Made by a program: the position numbers and the translations under genes. Shown piece by piece: positions 20,701 to 55,143 of a stretch of DNA of 64,000 nucleotides. This stretch comes from an uncultured virus (IMG/VR IMGVR_UViG_3300008116_000013). Lineage: Duplodnaviria; Heunggongvirae; Uroviricota; Caudoviricetes. Position 1 is the first letter of the stretch; each line of letters starts with the position of its first letter. The notes under the pieces are model-generated. The model did not search any database. It worked only from the letters and a program-made list of their open reading frames with translations, and had not been told where the DNA came from. Location of the stretch: IMG/VR virus record IMGVR_UViG_3300008116_000013, one strand, 5' to 3'.

Positions 20701-23700
20701 TCCAACATAATTTAAAGTAGATCCAATTCCAACTGAAGTTGCAGCAACTCCAATAAAAGTTGAATTTGGTCTGTAAATTAATTCTTCACCTGTACTAAAG
20801 AAATGATTTGAAATATTAAAGTTTCCAGTTGATGGTTCTAATACTAAAGAATTTGAGGGATCAAAAGTTTTCATGAAAATTGGCACGCCATTATATTTAA
20901 GATCAAATTGAAGAGTATTAATATCATCATCATTAATAGCAAAGTACTTAGAAACTCCAACTGATTCTAAAACATTACTATATTCTAAATTTGGAGCAAT
21001 ATTTACATAATCATTTTCTCTATAAAAACTTTGATTAAAACTTAAAATTTCAAAAGTTCCTGAGAATCCTGCATCAGGATAAAATTTCAATGATACTGTT
21101 GATCCAGATATTTCACCACCAAAAGTTCCTATTCCAGAAGTGCTTCCTATTGATAAGAATGGATATTGAGTTGTATAAACATTATTAGAATCTGAAATAA
21201 GCATTACTTGATGTAATGCACTTGTTTGACCAATACTTACCTTTAAAACTGATTTTACTGCATTAAATTGTGTAGACTGATATGAAATAATAGTTGATGC
21301 TGATGAAACATTTGTATATAATGAATCATATTTCACAGTATTTTCATATCCTTCAAGTTGAGCTGGTTGTTTAAATCTATATGTCCCTATACCAGATCCA
21401 GATGCAGTTGTTCCAAATCCAATATTTTTGGATCGAATTGTTATACTATTGGTTGAAGTATTTGTGCAGGTTAATGATAAAATACCACTTGGACTAATGG
21501 AAGCTCCAAATGATCCAATAAAATTAGAACTCATTCCATCTTCACTATCAAAATAAAATTCTGATATATTTGTATCTGTACCATTATGATCTACAAAAAG
21601 TTCAACATAATTCATTTCATTAGTTACATTATCAATTAAATGAATTTCAGAATGAATAGATTCTATTACTGCAGCACTTGATTCTAATAAAATTGCAGTT
21701 GAACCTGAAGAAACTGTAGATGTTGTTCCAGTGAGATTAATAAATCCTATAGAAGCAGTGCCTACACCTGAAGTGTAATTTGTAAAGGTGGTATTTAAAT
21801 ATTTTATATTATAAGATGTATTGTATCCTTCTCTAGGAGTAAACTTAAGATAGTAATCTCCAGTGCTATCATCAATGTATCCATAAACATCTCCAATACT
21901 ATTTGAAATATAACCAGTTTCAATTGAAGATCCTACAGATATTGTTCCTTTTTCTAACGTAATAATATTGGAATTATCATTTAAGACTATTACTTCATTA
22001 AATTGAGATTGGGAATAGTCCTTACTTGATATTTGTACGAGATACTTATTATACTTTCTAGAAGAAATGATATCTACAATTTTTGCAGAAGTATCTAAAT
22101 CAAGTGCCTGGTCGGAGGTTGAAAATTCAGAACTAATATCATCAATTTCAAGAACTCTGTTTGTTCTGCATTCAAAATAATTTGATAGTCTTTTATTTTG
22201 GAGTTTTACAAATCTAGAAATATTTTTAGTTTGATTCACATCAAAATCCTGAACAAAATCAAAATTATTAATTGTATCTACTCTATTTTCATCTATAATA
22301 TTGTAGTAAGAATTGACATACTCTTCTACATTTGTTGTTCCAACACCAACATTCTGAATAATTTGAGTATCTGCAAAGTTTTTGAGACCACTTGGATGAA
22401 GTATTCCATTTACAGGACTTACTATATCAATCCATTCTTGATTACTTTTTACAGTATATGATAAATTTTGATAATAATCATTATCAGATATGACTTGAGT
22501 ATCTTCATCTAATTTACCAATATTATCTGACCATCCAATATTTTGAACTGATGAATAATCAATGATAAATTGTCCGGTTGATTCTTTAACTTCATTAATT
22601 GTAGCGATTGAACCAGATTGAGTTCCGCGTATAATTTGACCTTTTTCTAATTCATATGATCCCGAAGTCTTAATATAATTATTATTTGATTCTGAAATTT
22701 TTAAATCTTTTTCAATAAAATTACTTTGTTCTTTTATTTCTAGCGATTCTCCAATAATAAAATTTGAAAAAACTTGATTAAAGTTAAATGATGGATAATC
22801 ACTGTAGTTAATAATTCTTCCATAATTATTATCGAGTGTTTTTGCAATTCCTGGATTTGTTGTTAAACCTGATAAATTAAATCTTACAACTGCTGGGGTA
22901 CTTGATGTTGATGCAGTATAACTAGAAACTGTAAAAAATTGATAACCATAATTTTCAGAATTTAGTCCATCTCCTTCAGTTCCATACTTTTCAATTCCCT
23001 CTACATAAATTTTATCACCAACTGCAAATGGTTCTACACTAAAACCAGATGATGGTGATAGTAAAGAACAAGTTACTATTCCAGATGATGAAGATTGTAT
23101 AGAACTAATACCAACTCCATTTGAATTATTAATTACTTTCATAGTAACAGGATTTTCAGGCAATCCCTTTGGTTCAATAATAACATTGACTGATGTAATT
23201 ACATTTGCGGATAAATTTGCTAGAATTAATCCCGAATCAATTTTTTCTCCAGTATCAGAATTTACTAAAATTATATCTGGTGCTGAAATATAATTTTTTC
23301 CACCATATGTAACATTAACTTCCTCAATTGTTTTTGAATTTTCAATAGTTAAAAACTTAGGAATAGATGCTTCTGGTCGCAAAGTTTTATCTGAAGAATA
23401 TTCAAAACCTTCATTTAGAATTCTAATTTCATTAATTTGTCCAACATAATCTGATTTTGGTATAATATATGCACCTGTTCCTGAAATTGAATCAATTCCT
23501 TCGAATACTGGTAACTTTTTAAAATTGGATCCTGCTGAAATTGTCCTAACCTTAGAAACTCCACCAGAAGCACTTGCAGAAGTTGTAGTGTATTCTAAAC
23601 TATCACAATCACTTTGAGTATAATAATTTTTCTCTGGTGATTTTGTTAATGAAATACTAAATGTTGTTGTCCCAACTCCAGAAATATTGTAAGAACCATT

Positions 23701-26700
23701 ATAATAACTATCAATAAAATTAATTTGAGAATAATTTTGAACTTCTTTATCAGCAGTGCTAATGTAACCAGATTTCTCTAAGGCATAGAATAGTTGAGTT
23801 GGTAAACCTTCACTATAATTAATTGTTAGCGAAGCATTGGTTGATATCCCAACAGTTCCTAGACCACTTACAGAGAATGTGGATGTAGATCCTATAGAAA
23901 TAAATTCATCCTTAAATTCCTGATCATAGAATATTTTAAACTTATAACCAGATAGAGAAGAATCCGTTAAATTGAATACAAGGTTATTATTTTTGATTGT
24001 AGGAATTGCTGGATTGATTTGAGCAAAAGTTGCAGTTGTAAAAGAAAAATTATTGACTATGAGAGGAGGATTTGAAATTGAATCAAGATACGTTTCACAA
24101 ATATTAATGGTATCTTTATCAATTTTATAAACAAAGTATTCTTTTTTATTGTTTACAAAATAATCTAAGAAAATTTTATTGCCCGTTTCGAGTCCATGAT
24201 TTGGAATATATAAAACATTTCCATAATTTTTAACAGCTGGAGCTACATTAAATCCTAAAGCACCAGGAGATATATCTCCTGGTGCAGAGGCAAATCTTGC
24301 AATTAAAAGACCATCTCCAAGAGGTTGTACTAATCCACTACCATCAACATCAAAATAAGAACTGACTATTCCACATCTTGCGTAACATGTTGCATGTGTT
24401 GTTCTAATTGCATTTTGTGGGAATGTAATTCCAGTTGCAATATTCGGAAAAGATGCAAGTCCAAATAGATATCTTGTAATTAATACTCCATCATTATAAC
24501 TTACAACTCCATCCCCATCAATATCAAATTGAGTGTAGTTATCCCAAATGTAATCATATATTTGTTGAGCATTTCTAGTTGCTGTGGGAGAAATTGCACT
24601 ACTAGTCCAAGCTATTCCAACTGCAGTATCTAAAGTTACAACTCTAGTTGGGTATGTGTAACTAAATTCGGAAGCACTACCAACTCCTGATACATTACTT
24701 CCTGTAAGTGATAATGAATTAATTAGTAATTTGTTATATGCTTGATTATATTTTAATCTAACAGCAGTAGAAGTTCCAATACCAACGGAAAGATTTGGTT
24801 TTACTGAAAGATTAATTATATCTCCAGAAATGAGTTCGTGAGATGTTGAAACTGAAACTTGAGTTACAATTTTTTCAATATCACCCTTTACTTGTGTAAA
24901 GTTTGATTGTAAGGAATATTGATAATCATTAGAACCATTATTGATAAAGAACAAACCACTTGTTGATGTTGTCAATCCAATTTGAGTGACAATACCAATA
25001 TGATCTACTGATTTTTTAATTATATAAACAGTTTGACTATCTCCACTTGAAGGTAAATTAAATGCCGTGCTTCCTTCAGTATTCGCAACAGAAATTGCAG
25101 ATGCACTTGAAGGTTTTGTGAAAGTTACTGCTTGATTTGTTTTAAATGAATGATTTGGTAAATAAATTGATTGAGTTGGAATTGAGATGAGATTATTAGT
25201 TTGAACTCCAATGTTGTTAATAACTTTAACATCAATACCAGAAGTAGTGCCTACACCAATAGATTGATTTGCATTAAAATAAATTAAATCATTAATTTTA
25301 GATTCAAAATAATCTACAGATTTATTAACTATAAATGTGTCTGTATTGAAATATATTGGTGTTGTTGCAGTATGAGCAGCGCCAGTTGTTTCTCTAACAA
25401 CTCTAAGTACATTTTGAACCGGAAAAATATTTAATACTGATAATCTTTCTGATTCTATTGTTAAACTACTTCCTATAGAAATATTTTCAGGGATATTAGA
25501 AACATAAACATCAGTAACAATACCAGCTGCTGAATATGATGGAATTTCTTGAATAATAACTGATGTATATGAAGTTACTCCTATTTGTTGAAATCCATTT
25601 AATGAAGAAAGTGATGTGGAAAAACCAGAAATGTTTACATAATCTAGATTTTCAAAATTGTGTTTTGGACTAACTTTAACTTCAACTTGATTTCCATTTT
25701 TCCAAGTGAAAATTGCATCATTATATGATGTTATTGAAGTTTGTAAGTTTGAAATTTCTTCACCTTTAATTTCAGATACTTGTGCTATTAGTCCTCCACC
25801 ATTTGTATTTTCTTCATTGAATTGTAAAGTATTCCCAATTTTATAGTTATATCCAGAATTTATGATATCAAAACTATCAATTGAACCAAAAGTGACTGAT
25901 TCAACAACTGCAGTTTGATTAACAATTTCGTTTGATTCAATTATAAAATCATTATCAGCATAGTTATCATTAACTTTATATGGAAATGTATTTCTGACTA
26001 AATTAGAATTATTAAAATCAAATGATTGATTTAAAGTTTTGTTTTCTGCTATAAATTTGGATCTATATCTGTCTCCAATAAAATATGGAAAACTGCCAAC
26101 TACATTGTTTTCATCATCAATTATTGATGTTGCAAAATAAGCATATACTCCATTTGGAAATTCTGGAGTTATACAGTATCTTCCATTATATTCATCTAAA
26201 TCTCCAGAATTTGTAAATTTGTAGTCTTCTACAAAAAATCCAGAGTTAAATCCAGATGGTCTGTTTAAAATATTTGCAGTATTTAAAGTATAACCAGATA
26301 CTAATTTTTTAAGTGTTGAATTATCTTTTGGATTTTCATAACCATATGGTCCATAAATTGGATTACCATCATATGCCCATCCAATAATAGGTGAGTGAAT
26401 TGTTCCATCATCAAAAAATTGAGATTGCCCCTCATACCTTTTAAATTCTGATTGAAGCGTTTGAGAATATGAAAAAACTCCATATTGCAAATTATTATAT
26501 GATGATGTTACTAGATCTACTGCCTCTAAAGAAGTATCATCTATATCTTTATATAAAACATTTTTTTTAACTGTAATAGATCTTACTTGAGGATCAAGTA
26601 AAACATTTTTGCCTGCAGGGATTACTGAAATAGTGGTATTTGCAGTGGAGTATCCTGTACCAGGATTTACAACAATCACGTCAGTAATTTTATTATTAAC

Positions 26701-29700
26701 CACAATAGCTCTCAAAGCAGCACCAGTTCCTGTGCCAGTTACAATAATATCTGGAGTTGAATAGTATTCAGTTCCACCATATTGAACAAAAACATCTTGT
26801 ATTGATCCATTAATAATGTTTGCTTTAAGTTGAGCATCTTTACCATTTTTAATGGAAATAGATGGTTTTTTATGGTAGTTTAAAATTGTAGATCCATAGT
26901 CAGATCCTTTCTCATAAACATAAACATCTACAATTTCTCCACGTATAGTTGGAGTTGCATCAATAACACCTGTAATTTGAGTGCTACCAAAACCAACTGC
27001 AGAATATTCTACTTTTAAATAAATATCTGGATAATTGAAAACGTGATAACCAGAACCTGTAGATCCTAAACTAATATAATTTTTTCTTAAATAATTTGTT
27101 CTTACTGTTCCTCCAATGCCAGCATTAGATAATTTAAAAGTATCATTATCAACCTTAAGAACATAGTATTGATTTGTTGTAGTCAATCCTGATATTAAAT
27201 TACCTGTACTTGAATATACAATTAATTCACCATCTTTAAAACCGTGATTTGAAAATGAGATTGTATGATTGATTGTAGAAATTCCAGTTGGAACAACTCT
27301 TAATTTTCTATTTGTATATCCACTTCCTTGATTTATGATCTTAATTTCAGATAGAGTATTTTTTGGTTCTGTAGCAAACTTATGAATACCACTTGTACCA
27401 ATTGTTGTAAATCCTACAGTATTAATTCCAGATTTAAAATCCTCAAATGACTCATAAAGTTGAATTGTATTATTACTGATAAATTTGCTATAATATAATG
27501 ACTCATTTTTAAGTGTCCTTCCAGTATTAGCATCTGATCCATAATAAGTGCCAATACCCAATGGAGAATTTCCACCCTGTCTATAAAGAATAGGTTGACC
27601 ATCATATAAATTATGATCACTAAGAAATGTAATAGTTTCAAAAGTTGTACTTATTCCACCACCATTTGATATTTCTCTTGCATCAAATGCAATCTCTCTT
27701 CTTTTTCTTTCTACAATTGGTTCAAAAGTAGCATCTGTCCCATTTCCACCGGTTAAAGCAACTGAAACAATAACGTCAATATCAAAATCTTGAGGATCAA
27801 CATAAATTTTTTCTACTGAACCACTAATGACTGGTTGAACAAGAGCAGATCCAGAGGACAGTGATAGTAATGGGGGGTTAATAACATCATAACCAGTTCC
27901 CCCACTTAGTACATTTACAGACTCTAGGGGTCCATAGTAAATTTTTTTATCAGATTTATAATTAAAAATTTCAACTCCATTAACTAAAATTCCAACTGCT
28001 CCAGGAAGTGTTAAATCAGATTTACCATCACCAATATTATTGGAAATAGGAAATTTTCTAAGTATTTTTTGTGGTGATAAAACTTTTTGTTTTTGAGAAT
28101 CTAAAATAAAATTATGTGTACCATCCGTTAAAGTGCCAAAAGACACATAGTTTTCAGTTCCAACTAAACTCTTAGAAAGATATAGTTTAATTTGTTGATT
28201 ATTTGTTCCTGAAACAACTTCGACATAATATAATCCTTCACTCAATCCTGAGATTGGGGTATCTGAAGCAGTATAGTATATTTCACTACCTGTCAAAAAA
28301 GAAACTCTTTCTGAAAAAGTAATGGTTGAATATAATTGTGTGATTGAGTTTTTTCCACTAACTCCAGAAGCATTATAAGAAAAGAGTGAATTTGAAATTT
28401 GATATGATGGCAATGAGTTTGAGGCAACATACATGTGCTCATTATTTTCATCATAAACATTTTGAACGTCTGAAGTTGTAGGATTATATTCAAATTCTAC
28501 ATTAGAAGCATTAGCATTTTTAATCTTTCTTCTAATATCATATTTTAAATCTGGTAAAAGACTAAAACCCTCTGCAATTGTTATTTGATTTTCAAAAATT
28601 GAAGTTATTTCTAAATTAGAATTTATTATAGTTTGGGAATCACGAGTTAAAATGTCAATATAATCACCGACTTTAAGACTAGATTTATCAATATTACTTT
28701 TTAGAGTAATTTGTGGAGTTGAAAAAGAATCAATTTGATATCTTGAGCTGGTATTGTAAATCCAACTATTTGCAAAAATTTCTTTATAAGTTTTTTGAAT
28801 TGGTAATTGTGGATTTTTTATAATTGTTCCAATATTTTTAACTTTTATTTGTTCACCTATGGAAATTGAAGAATTTGTAGTGATTGGTTTATAATTTGAT
28901 ATAACTCCAGTAATTCTAATTTCGACTTTTTTAGATTTATCTCCTTCAGCATACCCATAATATGTTTCATCTGAATAAATGGTAGAAGCAGTTGCAATAC
29001 CAGATGTAACTCCGGAACATCCAAAAAATTGGTTAATACTTTTATCAATATATGTAATTTTATTATTTCCAGAATAAATTGTTCCAGATTGTGGAAATCC
29101 TAATGTTGAATCTACAGTAATGACTGAATCACCTTCACTTACATAATTTAAATTTTTTGTGTTCCCTGTAATATTGAAAGTTCCTGTTATTGTTGGGAAT
29201 GCATCATCATAACCAATAAAAAGTAAAAGTTTGTAATATGTTTTATTTTTTCTTCGAATTATCTCAACTTCTGATACCGAAGCTGATGTTGTAATATCAT
29301 TGTTTTTAAATATTGTTTGACCTTTTAATTGTAAAGGATCTCCTGAAATTACATCAGCAATAACAACCGCTCTCCTTACATAAGTTGATGATGATGGTTT
29401 TAACAAAAATTGTTCAAGATCAATTACCTTTGGAGTTTCACCAAATAAAACATTAAAAAGAATTTTAAATGATTCTTCAGTCCCTTTAGATTCATAAAGA
29501 GTTCTTGCTTCTTTAATGAAATTGCCAACATTCAAATCTGAAACAAAATCTTTGTTTTCTAGATCTGGAGTTAAAGAATATTTAATTTTTTTATAAAATT
29601 CTTTTAAAAATAAAGAGCTTAAATTTTGTACGGTCGATAATCCTACATGTGATGCTGAGTTTGATGTAGAAAATACCAGTTCTTCAGATTGGAGATCATG

Positions 29701-30096
29701 ATGATAATTTGTAATTCCAGAAAAACCACGAACACAACCGGTGAAGGTATTTGTAGTTAATCCAGTATATGTAATAATTTCATCATCAATTTTTAAAAGA
29801 CCATAATTTTGAGGAAATCCTTTGGTTGTTGAAACTTCAATAGTAGTTGTGGACGAAGAAATATCAGTAGAAAGAGTTGTAAATCCAACTATTACTTCCG
29901 GAGTTAAGTTATCAAGTTTTAAATATTGATCTAGATTTTCAGCAATGTCAACTGTTGCTCCTTGATTTTCTAGAGAAATATAATATTGCTTCAGAAAGTC
30001 TACAACTTTTGGACTCTCATCTAAAATAAATTCAGGAAGTTGACTATCAATTATTTGTTGTACTTTTATCCTAGAGTCAAAACCTGTTTGTATCAT
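17725..30096 (-). CDS. gp7: Giant baseplate wedge initiator (gp7-like), 4123 aa, with a YHYH-like domain and a dockerin-like insert
   Basis: Position between gp6 and gp8; SQLPEFI...FLKQYY...YESKGTEESFKILFNVLFG N-terminus; DNDYYQNLSY...LHPSGLKNF; HSPIIGWAYDGNPIYGPYGY...GDLDEYNGR. Confidence 0.8.
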   Translation of the reverse strand: MIQTGFDSRIKVQQIIDSQLPEFILDESPKVVDFLKQYYISLENQGATVDIAENLDQYLKLDNLTPEVIVGFTTLSTDISSSTTTIEVSTTKGFPQNYGLLKIDDEIITYTGLTTNTFTGCVRGFSGITNYHHDLQSEELVFSTSNSASHVGLSTVQNLSSLFLKEFYKKIKYSLTPDLENKDFVSDLNVGNFIKEARTLYESKGTEESFKILFNVLFGETPKVIDLEQFLLKPSSSTYVRRAVVIADVISGDPLQLKGQTIFKNNDITTSASVSEVEIIRRKNKTYYKLLLFIGYDDAFPTITGTFNITGNTKNLNYVSEGDSVITVDSTLGFPQSGTIYSGNNKITYIDKSINQFFGCSGVTSGIATASTIYSDETYYGYAEGDKSKKVEIRITGVISNYKPITTNSSISIGEQIKVKNIGTIIKNPQLPIQKTYKEIFANSWIYNTSSRYQIDSFSTPQITLKSNIDKSSLKVGDYIDILTRDSQTIINSNLEITSIFENQITIAEGFSLLPDLKYDIRRKIKNANASNVEFEYNPTTSDVQNVYDENNEHMYVASNSLPSYQISNSLFSYNASGVSGKNSITQLYSTITFSERVSFLTGSEIYYTASDTPISGLSEGLYYVEVVSGTNNQQIKLYLSKSLVGTENYVSFGTLTDGTHNFILDSQKQKVLSPQKILRKFPISNNIGDGKSDLTLPGAVGILVNGVEIFNYKSDKKIYYGPLESVNVLSGGTGYDVINPPLLSLSSGSALVQPVISGSVEKIYVDPQDFDIDVIVSVALTGGNGTDATFEPIVERKRREIAFDAREISNGGGISTTFETITFLSDHNLYDGQPILYRQGGNSPLGIGTYYGSDANTGRTLKNESLYYSKFISNNTIQLYESFEDFKSGINTVGFTTIGTSGIHKFATEPKNTLSEIKIINQGSGYTNRKLRVVPTGISTINHTISFSNHGFKDGELIVYSSTGNLISGLTTTNQYYVLKVDNDTFKLSNAGIGGTVRTNYLRKNYISLGSTGSGYHVFNYPDIYLKVEYSAVGFGSTQITGVIDATPTIRGEIVDVYVYEKGSDYGSTILNYHKKPSISIKNGKDAQLKANIINGSIQDVFVQYGGTEYYSTPDIIVTGTGTGAALRAIVVNNKITDVIVVNPGTGYSTANTTISVIPAGKNVLLDPQVRSITVKKNVLYKDIDDTSLEAVDLVTSSYNNLQYGVFSYSQTLQSEFKRYEGQSQFFDDGTIHSPIIGWAYDGNPIYGPYGYENPKDNSTLKKLVSGYTLNTANILNRPSGFNSGFFVEDYKFTNSGDLDEYNGRYCITPEFPNGVYAYFATSIIDDENNVVGSFPYFIGDRYRSKFIAENKTLNQSFDFNNSNLVRNTFPYKVNDNYADNDFIIESNEIVNQTAVVESVTFGSIDSFDIINSGYNYKIGNTLQFNEENTNGGGLIAQVSEIKGEEISNLQTSITSYNDAIFTWKNGNQVEVKVSPKHNFENLDYVNISGFSTSLSSLNGFQQIGVTSYTSVIIQEIPSYSAAGIVTDVYVSNIPENISIGSSLTIESERLSVLNIFPVQNVLRVVRETTGAAHTATTPIYFNTDTFIVNKSVDYFESKINDLIYFNANQSIGVGTTSGIDVKVINNIGVQTNNLISIPTQSIYLPNHSFKTNQAVTFTKPSSASAISVANTEGSTAFNLPSSGDSQTVYIIKKSVDHIGIVTQIGLTTSTSGLFFINNGSNDYQYSLQSNFTQVKGDIEKIVTQVSVSTSHELISGDIINLSVKPNLSVGIGTSTAVRLKYNQAYNKLLINSLSLTGSNVSGVGSASEFSYTYPTRVVTLDTAVGIAWTSSAISPTATRNAQQIYDYIWDNYTQFDIDGDGVVSYNDGVLITRYLFGLASFPNIATGITFPQNAIRTTHATCYARCGIVSSYFDVDGSGLVQPLGDGLLIARFASAPGDISPGALGFNVAPAVKNYGNVLYIPNHGLETGNKIFLDYFVNNKKEYFVYKIDKDTINICETYLDSISNPPLIVNNFSFTTATFAQINPAIPTIKNNNLVFNLTDSSLSGYKFKIFYDQEFKDEFISIGSTSTFSVSGLGTVGISTNASLTINYSEGLPTQLFYALEKSGYISTADKEVQNYSQINFIDSYYNGSYNISGVGTTTFSISLTKSPEKNYYTQSDCDSLEYTTTSASASGGVSKVRTISAGSNFKKLPVFEGIDSISGTGAYIIPKSDYVGQINEIRILNEGFEYSSDKTLRPEASIPKFLTIENSKTIEEVNVTYGGKNYISAPDIILVNSDTGEKIDSGLILANLSANVITSVNVIIEPKGLPENPVTMKVINNSNGVGISSIQSSSSGIVTCSLLSPSSGFSVEPFAVGDKIYVEGIEKYGTEGDGLNSENYGYQFFTVSSYTASTSSTPAVVRFNLSGLTTNPGIAKTLDNNYGRIINYSDYPSFNFNQVFSNFIIGESLEIKEQSNFIEKDLKISESNNNYIKTSGSYELEKGQIIRGTQSGSIATINEVKESTGQFIIDYSSVQNIGWSDNIGKLDEDTQVISDNDYYQNLSYTVKSNQEWIDIVSPVNGILHPSGLKNFADTQIIQNVGVGTTNVEEYVNSYYNIIDENRVDTINNFDFVQDFDVNQTKNISRFVKLQNKRLSNYFECRTNRVLEIDDISSEFSTSDQALDLDTSAKIVDIISSRKYNKYLVQISSKDYSQSQFNEVIVLNDNSNIITLEKGTISVGSSIETGYISNSIGDVYGYIDDSTGDYYLKFTPREGYNTSYNIKYLNTTFTNYTSGVGTASIGFINLTGTTSTVSSGSTAILLESSAAVIESIHSEIHLIDNVTNEMNYVELFVDHNGTDTNISEFYFDSEDGMSSNFIGSFGASISPSGILSLTCTNTSTNSITIRSKNIGFGTTASGSGIGTYRFKQPAQLEGYENTVKYDSLYTNVSSASTIISYQSTQFNAVKSVLKVSIGQTSALHQVMLISDSNNVYTTQYPFLSIGSTSGIGTFGGEISGSTVSLKFYPDAGFSGTFEILSFNQSFYRENDYVNIAPNLEYSNVLESVGVSKYFAINDDDINTLQFDLKYNGVPIFMKTFDPSNSLVLEPSTGNFNISNHFFSTGEELIYRPNSTFIGVAATSVGIGSTLNYVGVVTNLLPPVVYAIKINNDKFKIATRKEYAAAGIAVTFTSVGLGNAHELEMVKKNEKSIITIDNIIQSPISYSLLNYTVNNGTSIGAATTFFALSGISSILIGDILKIDNEYMKVENVGFGTTYSGPISFAGTFPLVGVKRGFVGSSATSHSNSGIASVYRGSFNISKSAIYFTYPPQGSLEDQLLVDFDELPEAKSYFNGRVFLRKDYTSNVVYDNISENFTGIGQTYKLTVGGGNTIGLGTIGGNGIVLINGIYQTPTTENNINNNFRIFEDTVVGVSSIVFSGITSTNGSLIVSESDINLNQLPRGGVIVSLGSTPGLGYAPLVGASVTSIISGGIITSIGIGTTGNWGSGYTNPVSVAVTDSTGNGSIISANVGAGGTLSFTIVNGGSGYTNPTINVSAPSYSNLTVIGVSRLGIGTTTSCGTGLLVNVDVGACSTTGIGSTLFEVTNFEIVRNGYGFKPGDVVKVVGLVTAYGLSSPISEFKLTVVDTFTDSFSAWQFGELDYIDSIKNLQDGLRVRFPLYYNSQLLSFEKNSKDQDSQLIDFNTLLVIFINGILQQPGVAYQFNGGTSFTFTEPPKVEDNISIYFYRGSSLDSEYITVFETLKPGDDIQILSNNLLSGITTTQNSRVISGIVTSDIIETSPYGFQGIDASNFKPLNWTKQKVDKVIDGELISKSRDSIEPQIYPTAKIIKDLTSTDGTIYVDNSEFFNYESEITPDFNALIISGTPDPVSAAVTAVVSIAGTIQSLSINNAGGGYVGASINVSISSPMRIGVGIGTTANASISIVNGSLSAVTINNPGFGYTTSNPPQVLVPLPDPTYENITNITAVAGKSGNLTGIGTTVGIGTDLALRFTAQNFDSLVPSLSIGDYIFVYDTIVGNGVTSIINSNTDVIGIGTICVDNIYRISAISAGVVTCNIHSQTSIVGIATTGDNVGKFSWGKLSSLTRSLTPISIGISGFTVNSGLTTFPTIQRRNYGLRNTGAIKKDL

Positions 30097-36116: not shown

Positions 36117-37015
36117 CTACTTTTTCTTCTTTCTAGTATTCGCTGCCTTCTTTGCCCCATTAGTTTTTGCTTGAGACTTTACATTCTTGAATCTTTTATC
36201 AGGACGGGATTTGCCATCCTTGTGAATCCATCTACCAAACATTGTTCTTCCTCAGATAAACTTAGCAGGTGAACCACAAGACTTATAGAATGCAATCATT
36301 CTTTCTGCCTCTTCTTTAGTGGTGAAAGATTGTGTTCTCCATTCACAATCATTGTATGGTGATTGATAAGTAATTGTGAACCCGATTGAATTGATTTGTT
36401 GTTGATTGTTGTACATGAATCTAGATGTGTTAGGTGTGTGTATCTCGTCGAGATGTATGTATGTGTGTCTCGACGAGATAATGTGTGCGCTCTCGACTAG
36501 ATTATTCTTTTCGAGATCTAATCTTTGCTTTTCTCATTTCACGAATGAGTGAAAGATAATTTTGTCGTGCAGTTTTTTCTAATTCTGCACATTCATCAGT
36601 ACGATGAAGATGCCACTCAGCAAAAGCAGTTTGCCACTCAGAATGTAAAGATTTAATCATCAGTAGTGGTGGTGTGACATAACATTGTTGGGGTCATTGT
36701 ACCAATCAGAATCCTCATAAGATTCAGTCATTCGAATCATCAACTCATCAGTAAGTTCAACGACTCCGGTTGTAACTAACTGTAGGATTTCTTCAGCGGT
36801 GAGGAATGTTTGCATGGTTCTGTAGTGTGGTTAAGAGGGGGGAATGTTACCCCCCGTGAATGTTACTTTTGAATGCAGTATCCGTACTCATCAATCGGGA
36901 AATCTTCATGATTCCAGTGTTCCTGAAGATCCTCCCAATTCTCTTGAATGTATTCATGAAGATCAAGTGCCCGATCTTCTTCCAGTTGGCGGCAGTTGGT
37001 GATGGGGTAGTTCAT
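36117..37015 (-). CDS. Five small early ORFs below the ORF-track cutoff: 36117-36242, 36252-36416, 36502-36660, 36660-36815, 36863-37015
   Basis: Manual translations starting MFGRWIHKDGKS, MYNNQQQINSIG, MIKSLHSEWQTA, MQTFLTAEEILQ and MNYPITNCRQLE; they tile the minus strand, one junction is TGATG-coupled. Confidence 0.7.
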
Positions 37016-37201
37016 TCAGTGGTGTGGTGTGAACTGAGAGAAGTCTACAGGGTCAGTGGCGCACCATCTCAGCAGCGGTGGACAGTGCATCCGCTGTCAC
37101 AGTGCGGATCGGGCGAATCGGTTCCCAGAGAATCCAGAGCAGTAGGGTTGCGATCATCAGGCGGAGCATGGTAGGATTGGCAGTTGCTTTGCTGAGTGCT
37201 T

Positions 37202-37372: not shown

Positions 37373-37633
37373 TCACCCGAACAGGGCAGCGGCAAGACGA
37401 TCACGCTTGCGGATCTTATCGGGAAAAATGCTCCACTGATCACGCTTGCCATCAGGGCGCAGTGTGGCGGTGAGAATGCCCTCCCGCTCCATCTCCACCA
37501 TAATGGCGTGAACAGTGCCCTTATGCTTACGGGGGTCCATTCCCATGCCGCGCACAATGTCGCTGCATGTTTGCTCGCCGTTCTGAATCAGTGTGGCGCG
37601 GACGGCGGTGCGGATGGCGGTTCGGAGGTTCAT
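37373..37633 (-). CDS. Winged-helix DNA-binding protein (Z-alpha/wHTH-like)
   Basis: L...GEQTCSDIVRGMGM...TVHAIMVEMEREGIL...DQW pattern; has its own early promoter. Confidence 0.6.
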   Translation of the reverse strand: MNLRTAIRTAVRATLIQNGEQTCSDIVRGMGMDPRKHKGTVHAIMVEMEREGILTATLRPDGKRDQWSIFPDKIRKRDRLAAALFG

Positions 37634-37756
37634 CGGAGTGGTGTGGTGAACTGATACCAGTATGGGGGCAGATGGGGGGCAGATCCATCCAGGTTGTGCC
37701 AGTGGTCAGACTGTCCACCGATGCGGGTTTTGCGGGGGATCGGATGCTTATAATAC

Positions 37757-37819
37757 GGGGACAATCAAGAGAGGGGCAGGGTCGCCCCGTTGACGCAAAC
37801 GGTCGCCACCGAACCTGCC
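37757..37819 (+). ncRNA. Putative small RNA, copy 1
   Basis: Palindrome 37695-37718, then 30 nt, then TATAAT (37749-37754) on the + strand; no credible ORF; homologous to 39557-39620; terminator at 37845-37876. Confidence 0.7.
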
Positions 37820-37844
37820 TGCCGGTATTATAAAAAAAAGTATA

Positions 37845-37876
37845 AAGAAAGGGGGCGGATTGTGCCCCCTCTTTTA
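37845..37876. terminator. Bidirectional intrinsic terminator
   Basis: AAGAAA-GGGGGC-GGATTGT-GCCCCC-TCTTTT, between the convergent sRNA and the ORF ending at 37887. Confidence 0.75.
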
Positions 37877-37886
37877 TACTTTAGGA

Positions 37887-38159
37887 TCAGACTTCGATCT
37901 GTTCAATGTCACCATGCTTCAGAGCACGGTTAAACAACTGACCCCAAGATGTTGCCGCTTTGTCTTCATCATTGGAGAGAAGTGCAAACCAACGCTCACA
38001 CTCACCTTCATCTTCCCAAGCGTAGCGATAAACTTTATCGCTGCTGTTAAATGTCACCAGCAGATCGTAACAATCCCCATCGGCGCGAACAATAGCAAGA
38101 TGGGCGATGGCGCTGGATTGAACGCTGGCGCTGATCGTGAAGTCGGTTGCGGTTGCCAT
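37887..38159 (-). CDS. KTSC-like domain protein (likely start 38159)
   Basis: VQSSAIAHL...LLVTFNSSDKVYRY...SWGQLFNR resembles KTSC; the upstream extension in the ORF track overlaps the promoter. Confidence 0.55.
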   Translation of the reverse strand: MATATDFTISASVQSSAIAHLAIVRADGDCYDLLVTFNSSDKVYRYAWEDEGECERWFALLSNDEDKAATSWGQLFNRALKHGDIEQIEV

Positions 38160-38229
38160 AGTGTCGTTTGCGGTTGACTCTGTAAGTCTACAGGATAGGT
38201 GGGGGGCATCCGCGCCCCCCGTGTGCATC

Positions 38230-38907
38230 TTAACGATCTGTCACAATGGCGTCAACTGCCTTCTTAGCAGTCCCGTGTGCAGGAAATGCTATAATAAACT
38301 CACGGTCGGATTGTTGACACAAACCGCAGGTGCTGCAGTTAACTTTACCCTTGTGAATCTTAGCAGGGCAAACAACAACCTTACGACCGCTCTCAGTGTT
38401 AAAGAACCGCCGCGATTCTGTGGAAGGAACAACAGCAACCGCAGGGATTCCGTGCTCTGACATAACCGAATCAGCAACCTCTACGGATTCTGTGCTCACG
38501 TTGACTGTGAACCCGTTAGCGTTAGCGTTCTGAATCACTTTTAGGTTGTGATCATTCAGAACGTGGTGAGTGTAGGTGAAACCTTTCTTGCCACGATTTG
38601 CCCGCACAAGTGCATCAACCATCAGCGGATTGATGTCACCTAAGAGATGCGGGAGATCCCCAGTTACGTTATGACGCCATAAAGAATTGGGGGCAAATTT
38701 ACGAACCTTGGAGATAAACTCATCCCAAGATACGCCGCGCTCGTGATTAGAAACCTTGCGCCAATGTACACCCTGTAGATGATACTTACCGTAGCACCCT
38801 GTTTCATAAAAAGGGCAGGCAGTTGAGCAGGATGCCCGTTCTGTGACGGTGGTGGGGATCGGTCCCGTGTTGCTGTTGCCTGAGGCGGTGGTGATGGCGA
38901 CTTGCAC
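38230..38907 (-). CDS. Cys-rich GP88-like (radical-SAM-related) phage protein; likely GTG start at 38907
   Basis: SGN..TG...SCSTACPFYETGCYG...WRHNVTGDL...FTYTHH...VNVSTES...CPA...CSTCGLC...FPAHG. Confidence 0.65.
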   Translation of the reverse strand: MQVAITTASGNSNTGPIPTTVTERASCSTACPFYETGCYGKYHLQGVHWRKVSNHERGVSWDEFISKVRKFAPNSLWRHNVTGDLPHLLGDINPLMVDALVRANRGKKGFTYTHHVLNDHNLKVIQNANANGFTVNVSTESVEVADSVMSEHGIPAVAVVPSTESRRFFNTESGRKVVVCPAKIHKGKVNCSTCGLCQQSDREFIIAFPAHGTAKKAVDAIVTDR

Positions 38908-38987
38908 GGTGGTGTGGTGCGGTTGACCTTTTAAGTATAGGGGTTGGGGGCACCCTGTCGATGCCCCCTGTGCCACCTTGCCAACTG

Positions 38988-39410
38988 TCACACCTTCCAG
39001 AGTTTCTCTTCAATCAGGCGATCAATCAGTGCCTTAGAGAGTGAACCACAGTGCTCACAATGCGATTCCAGGTTGATACGTTCATGCAGAGAATTACGAT
39101 AGCAGTAATGCTGAAAGGATGCAAAATGCCAGCGATAAACTGCACTCAGAGTCTGCAGATACTTACGGAAGACAACATAATCCGAATAATCTGAGAACCT
39201 TCTGATTGTATGATAAACAGAGTTAAATCCCCGAAAATCTGTAGTGTGGCGATTGCGACCACGACAATACTTAAGAGTATTCATAATCACCTCAGTGTAA
39301 TGCTCATTGAAAAACTTTGAGGTGACTTCTTGACAAATACGATCCAAATCTTTGATCTGGTTGGAGTTAAGATCCTGATCCAGGGAAGGATTAAAGAAAG
39401 GGGTGTTCAT
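38988..39410 (-). CDS. Hypothetical early protein (likely start 39410)
   Basis: MNTPFFNPSLDQ... preceded by a CA-rich leader; C-terminal CEHC. Confidence 0.65.
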   Translation of the reverse strand: MNTPFFNPSLDQDLNSNQIKDLDRICQEVTSKFFNEHYTEVIMNTLKYCRGRNRHTTDFRGFNSVYHTIRRFSDYSDYVVFRKYLQTLSAVYRWHFASFQHYCYRNSLHERINLESHCEHCGSLSKALIDRLIEEKLWKV

Positions 39411-39556
39411 GGTGGTGGGGTGGTGTGTGGTCGGCGTCAGTGGTGCGCCGTTGACGGAATGATGAACGATGAGAACCTGCCACCACAAGCGGGTTTGTGC
39501 CACCTTTAGAACTGGCACAACCCACCGGGTTTTGATGCGGTCTGGCAGTATCCTAT

Positions 39557-39620
39557 GGGGACAATCAGATGAGGGGAGGGGTATCCCTGTGGACGACAAC
39601 ACATCGCCACCGCCCCTGCC
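39557..39620 (+). ncRNA. Putative small RNA, copy 2
   Basis: Palindrome 39496-39519, then 29 nt, then TATCCT (39549-39554); GGGGACAATC...GAGGGG...GACG...TCGCCACCG...CCTGCC shared with copy 1. Confidence 0.7.
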
Positions 39621-39647
39621 ATAAAATAATAGAATGTGAAGAATAGT

Positions 39648-39766
39648 AAAAAGGATCAGGCACCACCCTGATCCTCAGCGTCCACATCACCTTAACCATG
39701 CTAGAATTATCTGTTCGCTTCGTGGGTGACTTTCTTTTAGCGGAGGCAAACCCCTTCCTCCTTGTC
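39648..39766 (-). ncRNA. Putative ~115-nt small RNA with H-type pseudoknot potential
   Basis: TTGACA (39796-39801)-18 nt-TAGAAT (39772-39777); ends in the AGGATCAGG/CCTGATCCT hairpin plus a U-run; no RBS-led ORF inside. Confidence 0.55.
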
Positions 39767-39955
39767 TTATAATTCTACCATCCAGTCTGGGTCATTGTCA
39801 AGTGTTGCCCAGAAATGATTGCGACCGTTCAATGATGTGAGAAACACTTTGTTACCTTTGTGTTGCTCAATGATGCAGATCTCGATGCGATTCATGATGT
39901 TCGAGAATCTGTTCTTTGCTTTCTTCGAGATTGGTGTAACAGATGCAGTTTGCAT
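39767..39955 (-). CDS. Hypothetical protein, paralogue of 61881-62087 (likely start 39955)
   Basis: V.P.S.KAKNR..N.M.....CI.EQ.KG...FL.S.N....FW shared between the two. Confidence 0.75.
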   Translation of the reverse strand: MQTASVTPISKKAKNRFSNIMNRIEICIIEQHKGNKVFLTSLNGRNHFWATLDNDPDWMVEL

Positions 39956-40049
39956 GATGGTCTCGTCGAGATGTGCATAATCTAGTTGATCTTGCTGATC
40001 TCGTCGAGAGAGGTGTACCACTAGATGAACTGGCACACCTCGACGAGTT

Positions 40050-43004: not shown

Positions 43005-43151
43005 AAGGTTTTAATGAGTATTACATAAGGTTTTAATGAGTATTACATAAGGTTTTAATGAGTATTACATAAGGTTTTAATGAGTATTACATAAGGTTTT
43101 AATGAGTATTAGTAGAAGGATTTAGAGAGTATTACATAAGGTTTTAATGAG
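43005..43151. repeat. 22-bp tandem repeat (iteron-like) AAGGTTTTAATGAGTATTACAT
   Basis: Four perfect copies at 43005, 43027, 43049 and 43071, then three degenerate or partial copies at 43093, 43116 and 43138. Confidence 0.95.
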
Positions 43152-54358: not shown

Positions 54359-54529
54359 TTATTTAGTGCCATTTAATCGATCCTCACATTTAGTATAAAA
54401 AGTTCCATTTACATAACAAGACTTACCTGCTTCATAGTATTTTACCACAGGTATTTGTGTTCTTGGATATTCTACCACATTTTTTACATGACAGAATAGA
54501 TTATAACCACAAATAAGAGTTTCAAGCAT
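54359..54529 (-). CDS. Hypothetical protein (56 aa; not in the ORF track)
   Basis: MLETLICGYNLFCHVKN...CEDRLNGTK; TGATG-coupled. Confidence 0.6.
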   Translation of the reverse strand: MLETLICGYNLFCHVKNVVEYPRTQIPVVKYYEAGKSCYVNGTFYTKCEDRLNGTK

Positions 54530-55143
54530 CAACACTCATCCATTCCAAGTGGTTTAGACACTTTAGTAAGTGTATAAGATCCATCGCCATTATCAACCCA
54601 TTCAACCTGATCACCCTCCTTTAGGTTTGCTGCTTCAAGAAGGTCATCTGGGAAAGTTACAAAACATTCACCACTTGGTTCTAATTCAACAGGAAGTTGC
54701 CACTTTACAACCTTATCTGCTTTTTCTTGTTTTTCTGCAGCATCACACATTGCATTCAGTTCCTCATCAGTGTACCGAACACTACTTACGGTTGAACCAG
54801 TGCTTTCCCAGAAAGAGTTCCAAGCATCTTTGCATTCGGGTGATGGATCATCTTTATCACAAGTCAGAGGGTTTTTTACATCACCATCACGCAAGTCACC
54901 AACAGTTGCCTGCCAAGCAAGTTTAAACTTCTCATCAAACTCCTCAATGAAGTATCCAAGAAACTCATATGCTGCCATTGTCATGGCCTCTGCACGTTCT
55001 TGTTGATTGTTACTGCAACATTCGTTTGCAACATCAATCATTTCACGGGCAGAGACGACCTTTGCAATGATCATCTCAAGATCATTCATTGTATCCCAAA
55101 CTTTCTGATACTTAATTGCCATGACGTTTGAGTTCTTCCTCAA
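54529..55143 (-). CDS. Protein with a C-terminal AbrB/MazE-like domain
   Basis: VE....GECFVTFPDDLLEAANLKEGDQVEWVDNGDGSYTLTK. Confidence 0.7.
   Translation of the reverse strand: MRKNSNVMAIKYQKVWDTMNDLEMIIAKVVSAREMIDVANECCSNNQQERAEAMTMAAYEFLGYFIEEFDEKFKLAWQATVGDLRDGDVKNPLTCDKDDPSPECKDAWNSFWESTGSTVSSVRYTDEELNAMCDAAEKQEKADKVVKWQLPVELEPSGECFVTFPDDLLEAANLKEGDQVEWVDNGDGSYTLTKVSKPLGMDEC

Follow-up and report, generated by a model that had tools for sequence, protein, structure and literature searches.

Many of the picocyanobacteria in lakes and oceans, a large share of the total, are killed by T4-like cyanophages. To our knowledge, few noncoding RNAs (ncRNAs) are known for these phages, whose signals for early and middle transcription are poorly defined. 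The window analyzed here is a 64,000-nt stretch of DNA from an uncultured virus, a T4-like cyanophage from lake water and a relative of Synechococcus phage S-SRM01. An earlier note on this DNA pointed to two similar short elements oriented against the genes. Are these elements genes for RNA, and what would such an RNA do? Our analysis indicated that both are probably paralogous genes of a widespread ncRNA family of T4-like cyanophages (Kyanoviridae), driven by promoters and oriented antisense. Table 1 lists their features.

Table 1. Coordinates of the two elements, their promoters and their neighbors in the window
Feature	Position	Strand	Remark
-10-like box CATACT, promoter of 86-aa gene 37373-37633	37659..37664	-	30 nt from palindrome 1
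Bipartite palindromic promoter/operator motif 1, TGTGCCA-N10-TGTCCAC	37695..37718	.	common to both divergent promoters
-10 box TATAAT, putative RNA copy 1	37749..37754	+	30 nt past palindrome 37695-37718
Putative RNA copy 1, conserved core + A/U-rich box	37757..37832	+	covariance-model match
Hairpin P1, copy 1: GGGGC / loop AGGGTC / GCCCC	37773..37788	+	covariation
Conserved linear tail, copy 1 (family motif UCGnnAC-n4-CCUGC)	37803..37819	+	homologue comparison
G+C-rich hairpin, terminator-like on both strands	37850..37870	.	terminator scoring
90-aa gene (phrog_4357, function unknown), last in module between the two RNAs	37887..38159	-	
225-aa DUF7227 gene (PF23872, E 5e-78)	38230..38907	-	anchor for RNA-independent locus set
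140-aa gene, no known family, divergent from RNA copy 2	38988..39410	-	
-10-like box CATCAT, promoter of 140-aa gene	39459..39464	-	31 nt from palindrome 2
Palindromic motif 2, TGTGCCA-N10-TGGCACA, 14/14	39496..39519	.	
-10 box TATCCT, putative RNA copy 2	39549..39554	+	29 nt past palindrome 39496-39519
Putative RNA copy 2, conserved core + AUAAAAUAAU box	39557..39633	+	covariance-model match
Hairpin P1, copy 2: GGGGA / loop GGGGTA / TCCCT	39573..39588	+	covariation
Terminator of minus-strand gene 39767-40036	39651..39676	-	terminator-like on - only; relatives' wobble pairs on -

The two elements and their homologues

A sequence check confirmed both copies on the + strand, copy 1 spanning 37757-37819 and copy 2 spanning 39557-39620, with letters that matched the earlier note exactly. 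The covariance model R1 found exactly two matches across the whole 174,667-base record. Copy 2 matched at G000:C1:51640-51725 (window span 39548-39633) with 96.7 bits and an E value of 4.9e-20; copy 1 matched at G000:C1:49840-49924 (window span 37748-37832, -10 box included) with 85.7 bits and an E value of 2.2e-17. The homology of the two copies is thus well above chance, as had been claimed.

The family is abundant. Two pattern scans of viral contigs, when pooled, gave at least 129 distinct homologue cores. Scan 1 gave at least 122 loci, and among the matches listed 35 nhmmer hits corresponded to 31 distinct sequences. Scan 2 gave at least 127 loci, and all 127 listed were true hits. Both scans fix portions of the tail motif, so tail conservation in these sets is partly ascertainment. 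An RNA-independent set was built with the DUF7227 protein as the anchor; of its 32 loci, 21 contained a total of 29 matches, each on the strand opposite the DUF7227 gene. Each record carried one or two copies, and pairs lay 1.5-1.9 kb apart on the same strand. Among isolates, the family was present in S-SRM01 (two copies), DSL-LC03 (one copy) and marine P-SSM2 (one diverged copy), and these cultured phages make it testable at the bench. The S-SRM01 and DSL-LC03 copies carry no annotation. Full scans of Syn9 and S-PM2 gave no family match, and a looser first-pass search gave none in S-CREM1 and S-8S53.

The earlier note could not match the elements to a known family. Rfam 15 gave 0 matches at the gathering threshold in the whole window, which supported a structured RNA family outside Rfam 15. 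At E values up to 10, the region 37400-39900 gave only four chance-level matches, none on the elements. Literature searches found neither the RNA family nor the palindrome described. One source names CfrI, PhotoRC-II, wcaG, manA, glnA and abiF as cyanophage ncRNAs (PMC9964418). Like the new family, these RNAs are found in T4-like cyanophages, and CfrI shares the antisense orientation too. Unlike the ncRNAs listed there, the new family lies in a window where no Rfam family reaches threshold.

A host origin was considered and rejected: a pattern search through 596 Gb of prokaryote genomes gave 50 matches, close to the estimated chance level. Seven of the 50 fit the family model, six of them at 60 bits or more. 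These six were on MAG contigs of 1.3-15 kb, and the weak one was in a Planctomycetota chromosome. None of the seven came from a record with a cyanobacterium in its title. Among sequencing runs on record as RNA, none was found containing the element stretch. Four runs that were compared with it contained contigs of relatives only, probably from DNA, and gave no useful coverage of the elements.

Hairpin P1 and the conserved motifs

The earlier note, which had two sequences to compare, proposed three covarying stems. One hairpin, P1, stood up to more sequences. It is the stem that the note had called alternative (GGGGC/GCCCC in copy 1 and GGGGA/TCCCT in copy 2), and it showed two-sided changes at all five pairs. 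In 107 distinct sequences, 99.8% of 535 P1 cells were paired, versus 43-67% in slid controls. The covariation score was 0.823, versus 0.189 in shuffles, and none of 500 shuffles reached it. The model used to fit alignment A4 already contains P1, which biases the A4 pair counts toward P1; the unfitted MAFFT alignment A2 (30 sequences) gave the same hairpin, and RNAalifold predicted P1 alone on it with 0 broken pairs. By corrected mutual information, the P1 pairs included the top three column pairs, and the weakest, 33-52, ranked about 44th. No distant column pair outside P1 showed both covariation and standard pairing in this analysis. Such five-pair compensatory changes mean that the element must fold as a single strand.

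The inner and outer stems failed. In its two registers, the inner stem (CCGT/ACGG versus TGTG/CACA) was 49.9% and 45.1% paired, not above shuffles. The outer stems (GGCAGG/CCTGCC and AGGGG/CCCCT) lie in registers that differ between the copies; they were 77.8% and 58.8% paired without covariation, they did not exceed their shuffles, and changes of CCUGC to CCAGC or GCAGC were uncompensated. The proposed pseudoknotted or switching architecture is not supported, as a single hairpin survived the 107-sequence comparison. The letters of a 3-bp contact between loop and tail (RGG with CCU, or GGU with ACY) hardly vary, and such a contact may still form. A closing stem UCAG/CUGA was rejected since it was canonical in just 44 of 106 sequences at the key position. 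The loop of the downstream hairpin (GAUUGU after copy 1) might have paired with the 5' ACAAUC, and this was also rejected: the mean longest complementarity was 4.97, versus 4.88 in shuffled DNA, which is chance. Single-sequence folds were mutually inconsistent.

The conserved 5' part of the transcript would be about 75 nt long and consist of four pieces. A single-stranded ACAAUC leader would be followed by the 5-bp hairpin, with a stem free to vary and a fixed 6-nt loop NNNGUM, mostly RGGGUA or RGGGUC. Then would come a linear tail, UGA..CAA..UCGnnAC-n4-CCUGC, and an A/U-rich box. In 28 sequences, conservation was 1.58 bits per column in the loop, 1.14 in the 5' region and 0.37 in the spacer from the palindrome to the -10 box. 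The sequence TCGCCACCG, which had been called invariant, is the same in copies 1 and 2 and varies in the homologues of the neighbor-protein set. Among homologues next to DUF7227, UCG..AC alone was fixed, with variants such as TCGACAC, TCGGTAC, TCGTCAC, TCGAAAC and TCGTAAC, and the family-wide motif is UCGnnAC-n4-CCUGC. Two types were distinguished among the homologues, type A with 70 members and type B with 32. Between paralogues, the type of a 4-nt insertion tracked the genome and the type of tail tracked the position.

The cores did not look like a small protein gene. Core lengths of the 107 sequences were spread over all three values modulo 3 (54, 34 and 19 sequences), the distance between the conserved blocks occupied all three phases (46, 41 and 20), and a stop-free + frame was absent in 41 of 107 cores.

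Strand, promoters and surroundings

The strand was read from the wobble pairs of P1. In the 107 sequences, 88 cells were G·U or U·G on the + strand, versus 1 C·A cell, which is the wobble on the - strand. As the wobbles lie on the + strand, the RNA is read against the genes. This asymmetry and the conserved TAnnnT box upheld the antisense reading of the earlier note. The neighboring terminators showed that the method can tell strands apart, since they served as a control with the opposite asymmetry: in 10 distinct variants of the copy-2 type of downstream hairpin, 7 cells were G·U on the - strand only and 0 on the + strand.

The boxes and the palindrome were then counted across loci. The -10 boxes precede the copies on the + strand at the distances that had been reported, and -10-like boxes lie on both sides of the palindrome at both copies, in agreement with the two-way promoter region proposed before. 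A TAnnnT -10 box was present in 95 of 103 loci examined. The palindrome scored at least 10/14 in 75 of the 103, and in 71 of these 75 its gap to the -10 box was 28-31 nt. The window held 18 matches to the palindrome motif, versus 1.5 expected, and all 11 motif sites had a gene-side -10-like box at 29-31 nt. This promoter class was also found in marine P-SSM2. Each RNA gene has its own host-type promoter, with a weak -35-like GTTTTR followed by TAnnnT, which forms a divergent pair with that of the adjoining protein gene. One bipartite palindrome (TGTGCCAS-N8-STGGCACA or the TGTCCAC variant) lies between both promoters, with its edges 28-31 nt from each -10 box. Bipartite palindrome, 28-31 nt and -10 box together define a promoter class that is predicted for at least 11 genes in the window. 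From sequence comparison, we take the family, hairpin P1, its strand and the promoter architecture as established, and we infer that the RNA is produced.

All credible genes around the elements are on the - strand, as are nearly all from 17.7 to 64 kb. The surroundings are small genes without known function or with DUF matches only, beside the baseplate genes gp6 and gp25. Flanking genes differed between loci in a crude clustering of divergent partners, for which ORF calls began inside the promoter region. A tie of the RNA to the DUF7227 gene was rejected: P-SSM2 carries the RNA without DUF7227, and the positive control passed. No PDB relative and no NCBIfam match was informative about the function of the DUF7227 protein. 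The RNA does not keep to one neighboring protein, which counts against the protein-binding mechanism considered below.

A reading with no + strand RNA is that the element is a DNA-level regulatory or recombination cassette, or a leader or riboswitch-like structure of the gene strand. An intergenic unit of about 250 nt (gene start, palindrome, -10 box, element, terminator) is homologous as a whole across both copies and their S-SRM01 counterparts, it sits among small genes of unknown function, and 5' halves look exchanged between paralogues, all of which would suit such a reading. So would the A/T-rich box at the 3' edge, which might work as a -10 box for the - strand and give some opposite-strand transcription. 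However, the compensatory changes at all five P1 pairs argue against it. In a gene-strand fold, the 88 wobble cells become A·C mismatches, and pairing falls from 99.8% to about 84% (derived value). We consider this reading highly improbable.

T4-type phages have cassettes with which to compare them, the promoter-early stem-loops (PeSLs), reportedly described by Arbiol in 2010. As described in a later source, a PeSL is a terminator stem-loop abutting a sigma-70-type early promoter that points the same way as the genes, without an oppositely oriented conserved unit (Comeau 2014, PMC4122927). The elements resemble PeSLs as repeated terminator and promoter units among small genes of variable T4-like regions. 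They do lie among small genes of such a hyperplastic region, and their paralogous copies, like PeSLs, could serve recombination. Here, unlike in PeSLs, terminator and gene promoter do not abut but are about 150-190 nt apart, and a promoter-driven, oppositely oriented unit of some 75 conserved nt lies in the interval. The elements also have a fixed-loop covarying hairpin and occur in one or two copies per genome. The promoter here is palindrome-dependent, whereas that of PeSLs is TTGACA-N17-TATAAT.

Possible functions

If the RNA is made, it might act by base pairing in trans, with the tail or the loop as the seed against phage or host mRNAs. Its own promoter, the conserved unpaired segments and the usable terminator at copy 1 agree with such a small RNA. 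However, the tail is broken up by freely varying positions (UCGnnAC-n4-CCUGC), which makes it unlike a seed. Both copies were scanned with RNAduplex against the region from -60 to +21 of 642 ORF starts in the record, a scan that covered phage targets. The best energies were -57.6 and -59.0, versus -60.9 and -57.9 for shuffled controls. No phage mRNA target stood above the shuffled controls, and the sole outlier was the element's own antisense. A base-pairing function in trans seems quite unlikely.

The 3' end bears on whether the RNA is small at all. The downstream hairpin of copy 1 is terminator-like on both strands and that of copy 2 on the - strand only. The hairpin at 37850-37870 ends the convergent 90-aa gene, and it might also terminate RNA copy 1. 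We infer that the 3' end could be this two-way terminator, about 30 nt past copy 1; copy 2 has no counterpart mark, and its transcript may run on because its hairpin is not a + strand terminator. A hairpin lies 15-21 nt past the core in about half of the loci, and the DNA past the core diverges widely among loci.

Instead of a free small RNA, the element could be the 5' domain, acting in cis, of a longer antisense transcript. It might let the polymerase pass the terminator that lies about 30 nt further on, or stabilize the 5' end of an antisense RNA over the upstream gene module, by which the module could be silenced or its mRNA protected from RNase E. Cyanobacteria are not known to have Rho. 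In cyanophage infection, long antisense RNAs shield host mRNAs from RNase E, according to one report (PMC3113571). The Rho-less host and this precedent agree with a cis-acting domain, as do the position of the element at the 5' end of the transcript, the hairpin shortly past the core in about half of the loci and the possible run-on at copy 2.

The anatomy and the copy number agree with it as well. Lambda nutL/nutR (boxA and boxB) and HK022 putL/putR are pairs of paralogous promoter-proximal antitermination RNA elements, two per genome. The new elements are similar in having one or two paralogous, promoter-proximal copies per genome, a terminator a short way downstream, and a fixed-loop hairpin with a free stem beside fixed linear boxes. 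However, they share no sequence likeness with nut or put, and no credible + strand genes follow the terminators, so nothing co-oriented is there to be expressed. They have a single supported hairpin, whereas put RNA has two. The DNA past the core, moreover, is not conserved among loci. A cis-acting domain is unlikely on this balance. Its put-like form, in which the viral RNA would act on the very host RNA polymerase that transcribed it, is very unlikely. Read-through of the convergent terminators in a Rho-less cyanobacterial host would cover a block of phage genes with long antisense RNAs, which would set when these genes are shut off or shield them from RNase E. If true, cyanophages would have an RNA-based device for antitermination or antisense programming, the first one known for them.

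We tentatively favor another reading, in which the fixed loop and the fixed linear motifs of the RNA would be recognized by a protein, and the RNA would act as a small regulatory or decoy RNA. In protein-binding RNA operators, unlike in antisense seeds or ligand pockets, the stem varies while loop and flanks stay constant, and the family shows this pattern. The RNA would be co-produced with the neighboring genes because the operator is common to both. A handle on how these phages program infection would come from identifying what binds the RNA and which factor recognizes the palindrome.

The flanks of P1 were also compared with the kink-turn, whose consensus is a canonical stem, a 3-nt bulge and tandem G·A and A·G pairs. 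Unlike a kink-turn, the 32 type B members have no 5' GA, and no Watson-Crick helix lies beyond the G·A pairs; the arrangement, judged from these alignments, is not a family-wide feature. In type A it is kink-turn-like in sequence: GA lies directly 5' of P1 (G31 in 69/70 and A32 in 70/70), and a 3-nt bulge and then GA lie 3' of P1 (69/70).

Two elements and their homologues

The two sequences quoted in the earlier note were located exactly where it had placed them (table). The window is G000:C1:12093-76092 of a 174,667-base IMG/VR virus record; among cultured phages, the freshwater Synechococcus phage S-SRM01 (Kyanoviridae) is its closest relative. The window contains the baseplate genes gp6 and gp25, followed by an extended series of small genes that match only DUF families or have no known function. 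Nearly all of these genes are on the minus strand, so the plus-strand elements are oriented against the gene flow. A single 4,123-aa ORF lies directly upstream of gp6 and gp25.

Features of the window
Feature	Position	Strand	Remark
RNA element, copy 1	37757-37819	+	
RNA element, copy 2	39557-39620	+	
Palindrome sites, 24 nt	starts 37078, 37695, 38969, 39496, 40014, 42105, 42373, 46387, 47618, 51684, 58061		
4,123-aa ORF	17725-30096	-	
Tandem array, unit AAGGTTTTAATGAGTATTACAT	43005-43151 (to about 43181)		6.6-7 copies, 22-nt unit, 90% matches
Near-palindrome TCTCGTCGAGA	36443-36501, 39961-40009, 42638-42840		
Gene leaders	37634-37658, 38908-38933, 39411-39458, about 37016-37037	-	
Weak MazE/PrlF-like protein	54529-55122	-	E 1.7e-5
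Weak MazE/PrlF-like protein	62436-62786	-	E 2.5e-4, below Pfam cut-off

S-SRM01 contained unannotated counterparts of both copies. An intergenic unit of ~250 nt was homologous among the four loci (two in the window, two in S-SRM01), in the order gene start, palindrome, -10 box, element, and terminator. A covariance model (R1) was built from 30 homologues. It matched two sites in the full-length record and no others (E 4.9e-20 and 2.2e-17), and the likeness of the two elements is beyond chance.

A first scan of viral contigs with the tail pattern gave at least 122 loci, of which 35 nhmmer hits (31 distinct) were true and the remainder chance. A second pattern scan gave at least 127 viral-contig loci, with true hits in all 127 listed. 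An RNA-independent set of 32 loci was collected via the protein of the neighbouring DUF7227 gene; 21 of them contained 29 model matches, all in the orientation opposite to that gene. The three collections together contained at least 205 hits and at least 129 distinct cores. Each record carried one or two copies, and paired copies were on the same strand, 1.5-1.9 kb apart. The lake isolate DSL-LC03 had one unannotated copy. Among five marine or estuarine isolates, the sole match was in Prochlorococcus phage P-SSM2, where the copy was diverged yet complete (45.4 bits with a second model, R2; E 6.6e-7) and opposite to annotated genes. Syn9 and S-PM2, scanned in full, gave no match. In prokaryotes, sampled at one genome per species, the pattern occurred 50 times, roughly what we estimate for chance, and the model matched seven. 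Six of the seven were on MAG contigs of 1.3-15 kb, which look like mis-binned phage DNA, and none of the seven record titles named a cyanobacterium.

As the earlier note had supposed, no known family accounted for the elements: no Rfam 15 family reached threshold anywhere in the window, and a looser search (E up to 10) gave just four matches at chance level, all outside the elements. The cyanophage RNAs in the list of PMC9964418 are Rfam families, and none of those listed matches. Among described arrangements, the PeSL cassette of T4-type phages comes nearest: in variable regions, a terminator stem-loop borders an early promoter (PMC4122927). As described there, PeSL cassettes lack an oppositely oriented conserved RNA unit, whereas the window elements have one. 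Our verdict is a new RNA family among phage-encoded small RNAs, real and widespread.

Predicted structure and strand of the RNA

Covariation pointed to one helix only for the family, the 5-bp hairpin P1. It had been called an alternative hairpin before. In an alignment of 107 distinct sequences, which leans to P1 because the model used for fitting includes that hairpin, P1 was paired in 99.8% of 535 cells, and slid controls paired in 43-67%. Two-sided changes were observed at all five pairs (150 cells). The covariation score was 0.823 versus 0.189 in shuffles, and none of 500 shuffles reached it. RNAalifold agreed: for 30 sequences aligned by MAFFT without such fitting, it predicted P1 alone, with no broken pairs. 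When all column pairs were scanned for mutual information, P1 pairs 35-50, 38-48, and 34-51 ranked first, 36-49 seventh, and 33-52 about 44th; no further distant pair with standard pairing was found. The other proposed stems did not hold. The inner stem was paired in just 49.9% or 45.1% of cells, depending on the register. For the outer stems, pairing reached 77.8% and 58.8% of cells with no covariation, their registers differed between the two copies, and changes of CCUGC to CCAGC or GCAGC were not compensated.

P1 contained 88 G·U or U·G cells when read on the plus strand and a single C·A cell, and its pairing would fall to ~84% on the gene strand. The RNA is thus read opposite to the genes, as proposed. 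A purely DNA-level or gene-strand element is contradicted by this wobble asymmetry and is very improbable. The asymmetry was reversed in the hairpin downstream of copy 2 and its relatives (10 distinct variants), where seven cells were G·U on the minus strand only and none on the plus strand, indicating that the method distinguishes strands. This fits a role of that hairpin as terminator of the upstream minus-strand gene.

The P1 loop was constant (NNNGUM, mostly RGGGUA or RGGGUC). Columns 32/53 at the P1 base were A·G (68), G·A (20), A-U (10), or G-C (7). In the 70 members without a 4-nt insertion (type A), the flanks were A-N-G-A [P1] G-N-N-G-A-Y-G-A, a sequence signature resembling a kink-turn, in which a canonical stem is joined to a 3-nt bulge and both strands carry GA. 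Type B, with 32 members, had the insertion and lacked the 5' GA, so the signature would be a subtype feature at most. The supposedly invariant TCGCCACCG varied in the family; the family motif was UCGnnAC-n4-CCUGC, with an A/U-rich box 3' of it. Indel lengths were not multiples of three, and an open plus-strand frame was lacking in 41 of 107 sequences; the element does not code for protein.

In alignment A4, the 5' halves of the paralogues followed the genome, being type B in both S-SRM01 copies (L001 1577-1651 and 3127-3203) and type A in both window copies. Their tails (..CCGAACCUGC versus ..CCGCCCCUGC) followed position. This mosaic suggests exchange between the two copies inside one genome.

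Promoter, downstream DNA and possible roles

TAnnnT lay directly before the element in 95 of 103 loci, with outer letters kept and inner letters varying, like a sigma-70 -10 box. A bipartite palindrome (TGTGCCA-N10-TGGCACA, or TGTCCAC/TGTCACA variants) scored at least 10/14 in 75 of the 103 loci, and its end was 28-31 nt from the -10 box in 71 of the 75. The motif was enriched in the window (18 matches versus 1.5 expected). At all 11 good window sites, a -10-like box lay on the gene (minus) side at a distance of 29-31 nt. Only four sites also had one on the plus side: those of the two RNA genes and two others that may be chance. The proposed bidirectional promoter held as an architecture, with -10-like boxes on both sides of the palindrome at both RNA genes. 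The palindrome itself is probably a general promoter element of neighbouring genes. The P-SSM2 copy also had this palindrome in front of it, followed by a 29-nt gap and TATAAT. The promoter class recurs in P-SSM2, a marine phage, on the minus strand (L352, about 1616-1639 and 1450-1473). No description of the palindrome or its promoter class was found in the literature searched, and the terms promoter, terminator, ncRNA, and palindrome were absent from the S-SRM01 paper (PMC8557907).

About 30 nt past copy 1, a hairpin was terminator-like on both strands; an RNA terminated there would be ~125 nt long. Past copy 2, the hairpin was terminator-like on the minus strand only. Across loci, the DNA beyond the A/U-rich box varied, being either terminator type, another palindrome promoter, or other sequence. 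The conserved unit is thus the promoter plus about 75-85 nt, and the transcript may be short or continue as antisense RNA.

Comparison of the loci showed a conserved, promoter-equipped plus-strand element of predicted structure, present as one copy or as two paralogues. Its combination of a changeable stem with an unchanging loop and interrupted but constant linear motifs would be the pattern of protein-read RNAs, and the common palindrome would couple RNA production to neighbouring genes. Our best guess, still a tentative one, is a protein-recognised small RNA, regulator or decoy, made together with those genes. A base-pairing small RNA is doubtful, as no phage target scored above shuffled controls. 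Somewhat less doubtful, though still unlikely, is a cis-acting 5' domain of antisense transcripts, acting in put/nut-like antitermination or as a stabiliser. Lambda nut and HK022 put are two-copy, promoter-proximal elements with a hairpin plus boxes. The anatomy of the element recalls them, but here no co-oriented genes follow. Favouring the cis-acting domain, host mRNAs are reported in PMC3113571 to be shielded from RNase E by long antisense RNAs during cyanophage infection. A single partner gene for the RNA was rejected: a crude comparison of loci gave differing neighbours, and DUF7227 is absent from P-SSM2, which has the RNA.

Other repeats and candidate regulators

The 22-nt array looks iteron-like and might mark a replication origin or a protein-binding array. 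The second near-palindrome had 16 matches with at most one mismatch versus 0.27 expected. They were clustered in intergenic DNA, in pairs or groups, so it is probably an operator of another regulator. Two proteins with weak MazE/PrlF (AbrB-type) antitoxin-like DNA-binding domains are candidates for the regulator that acts at one of the repeated operators. The four gene leaders had no Shine-Dalgarno sequence and carried a C/A-rich run (CCACACCAC...) immediately 5' of the start codon. The loop of the copy-2-type terminator, CACCAC on the plus strand, is GGUGGUG in mRNA and thus complementary to these leaders. In P-SSM2, a 78-aa ORF (L352 1147-1383, minus strand; record about 66122-66358) lies opposite the annotated 51-aa PSSM2_098 and has the palindrome, a 29-nt gap, and TATAAT upstream; PSSM2_098 may be annotated on the wrong strand.
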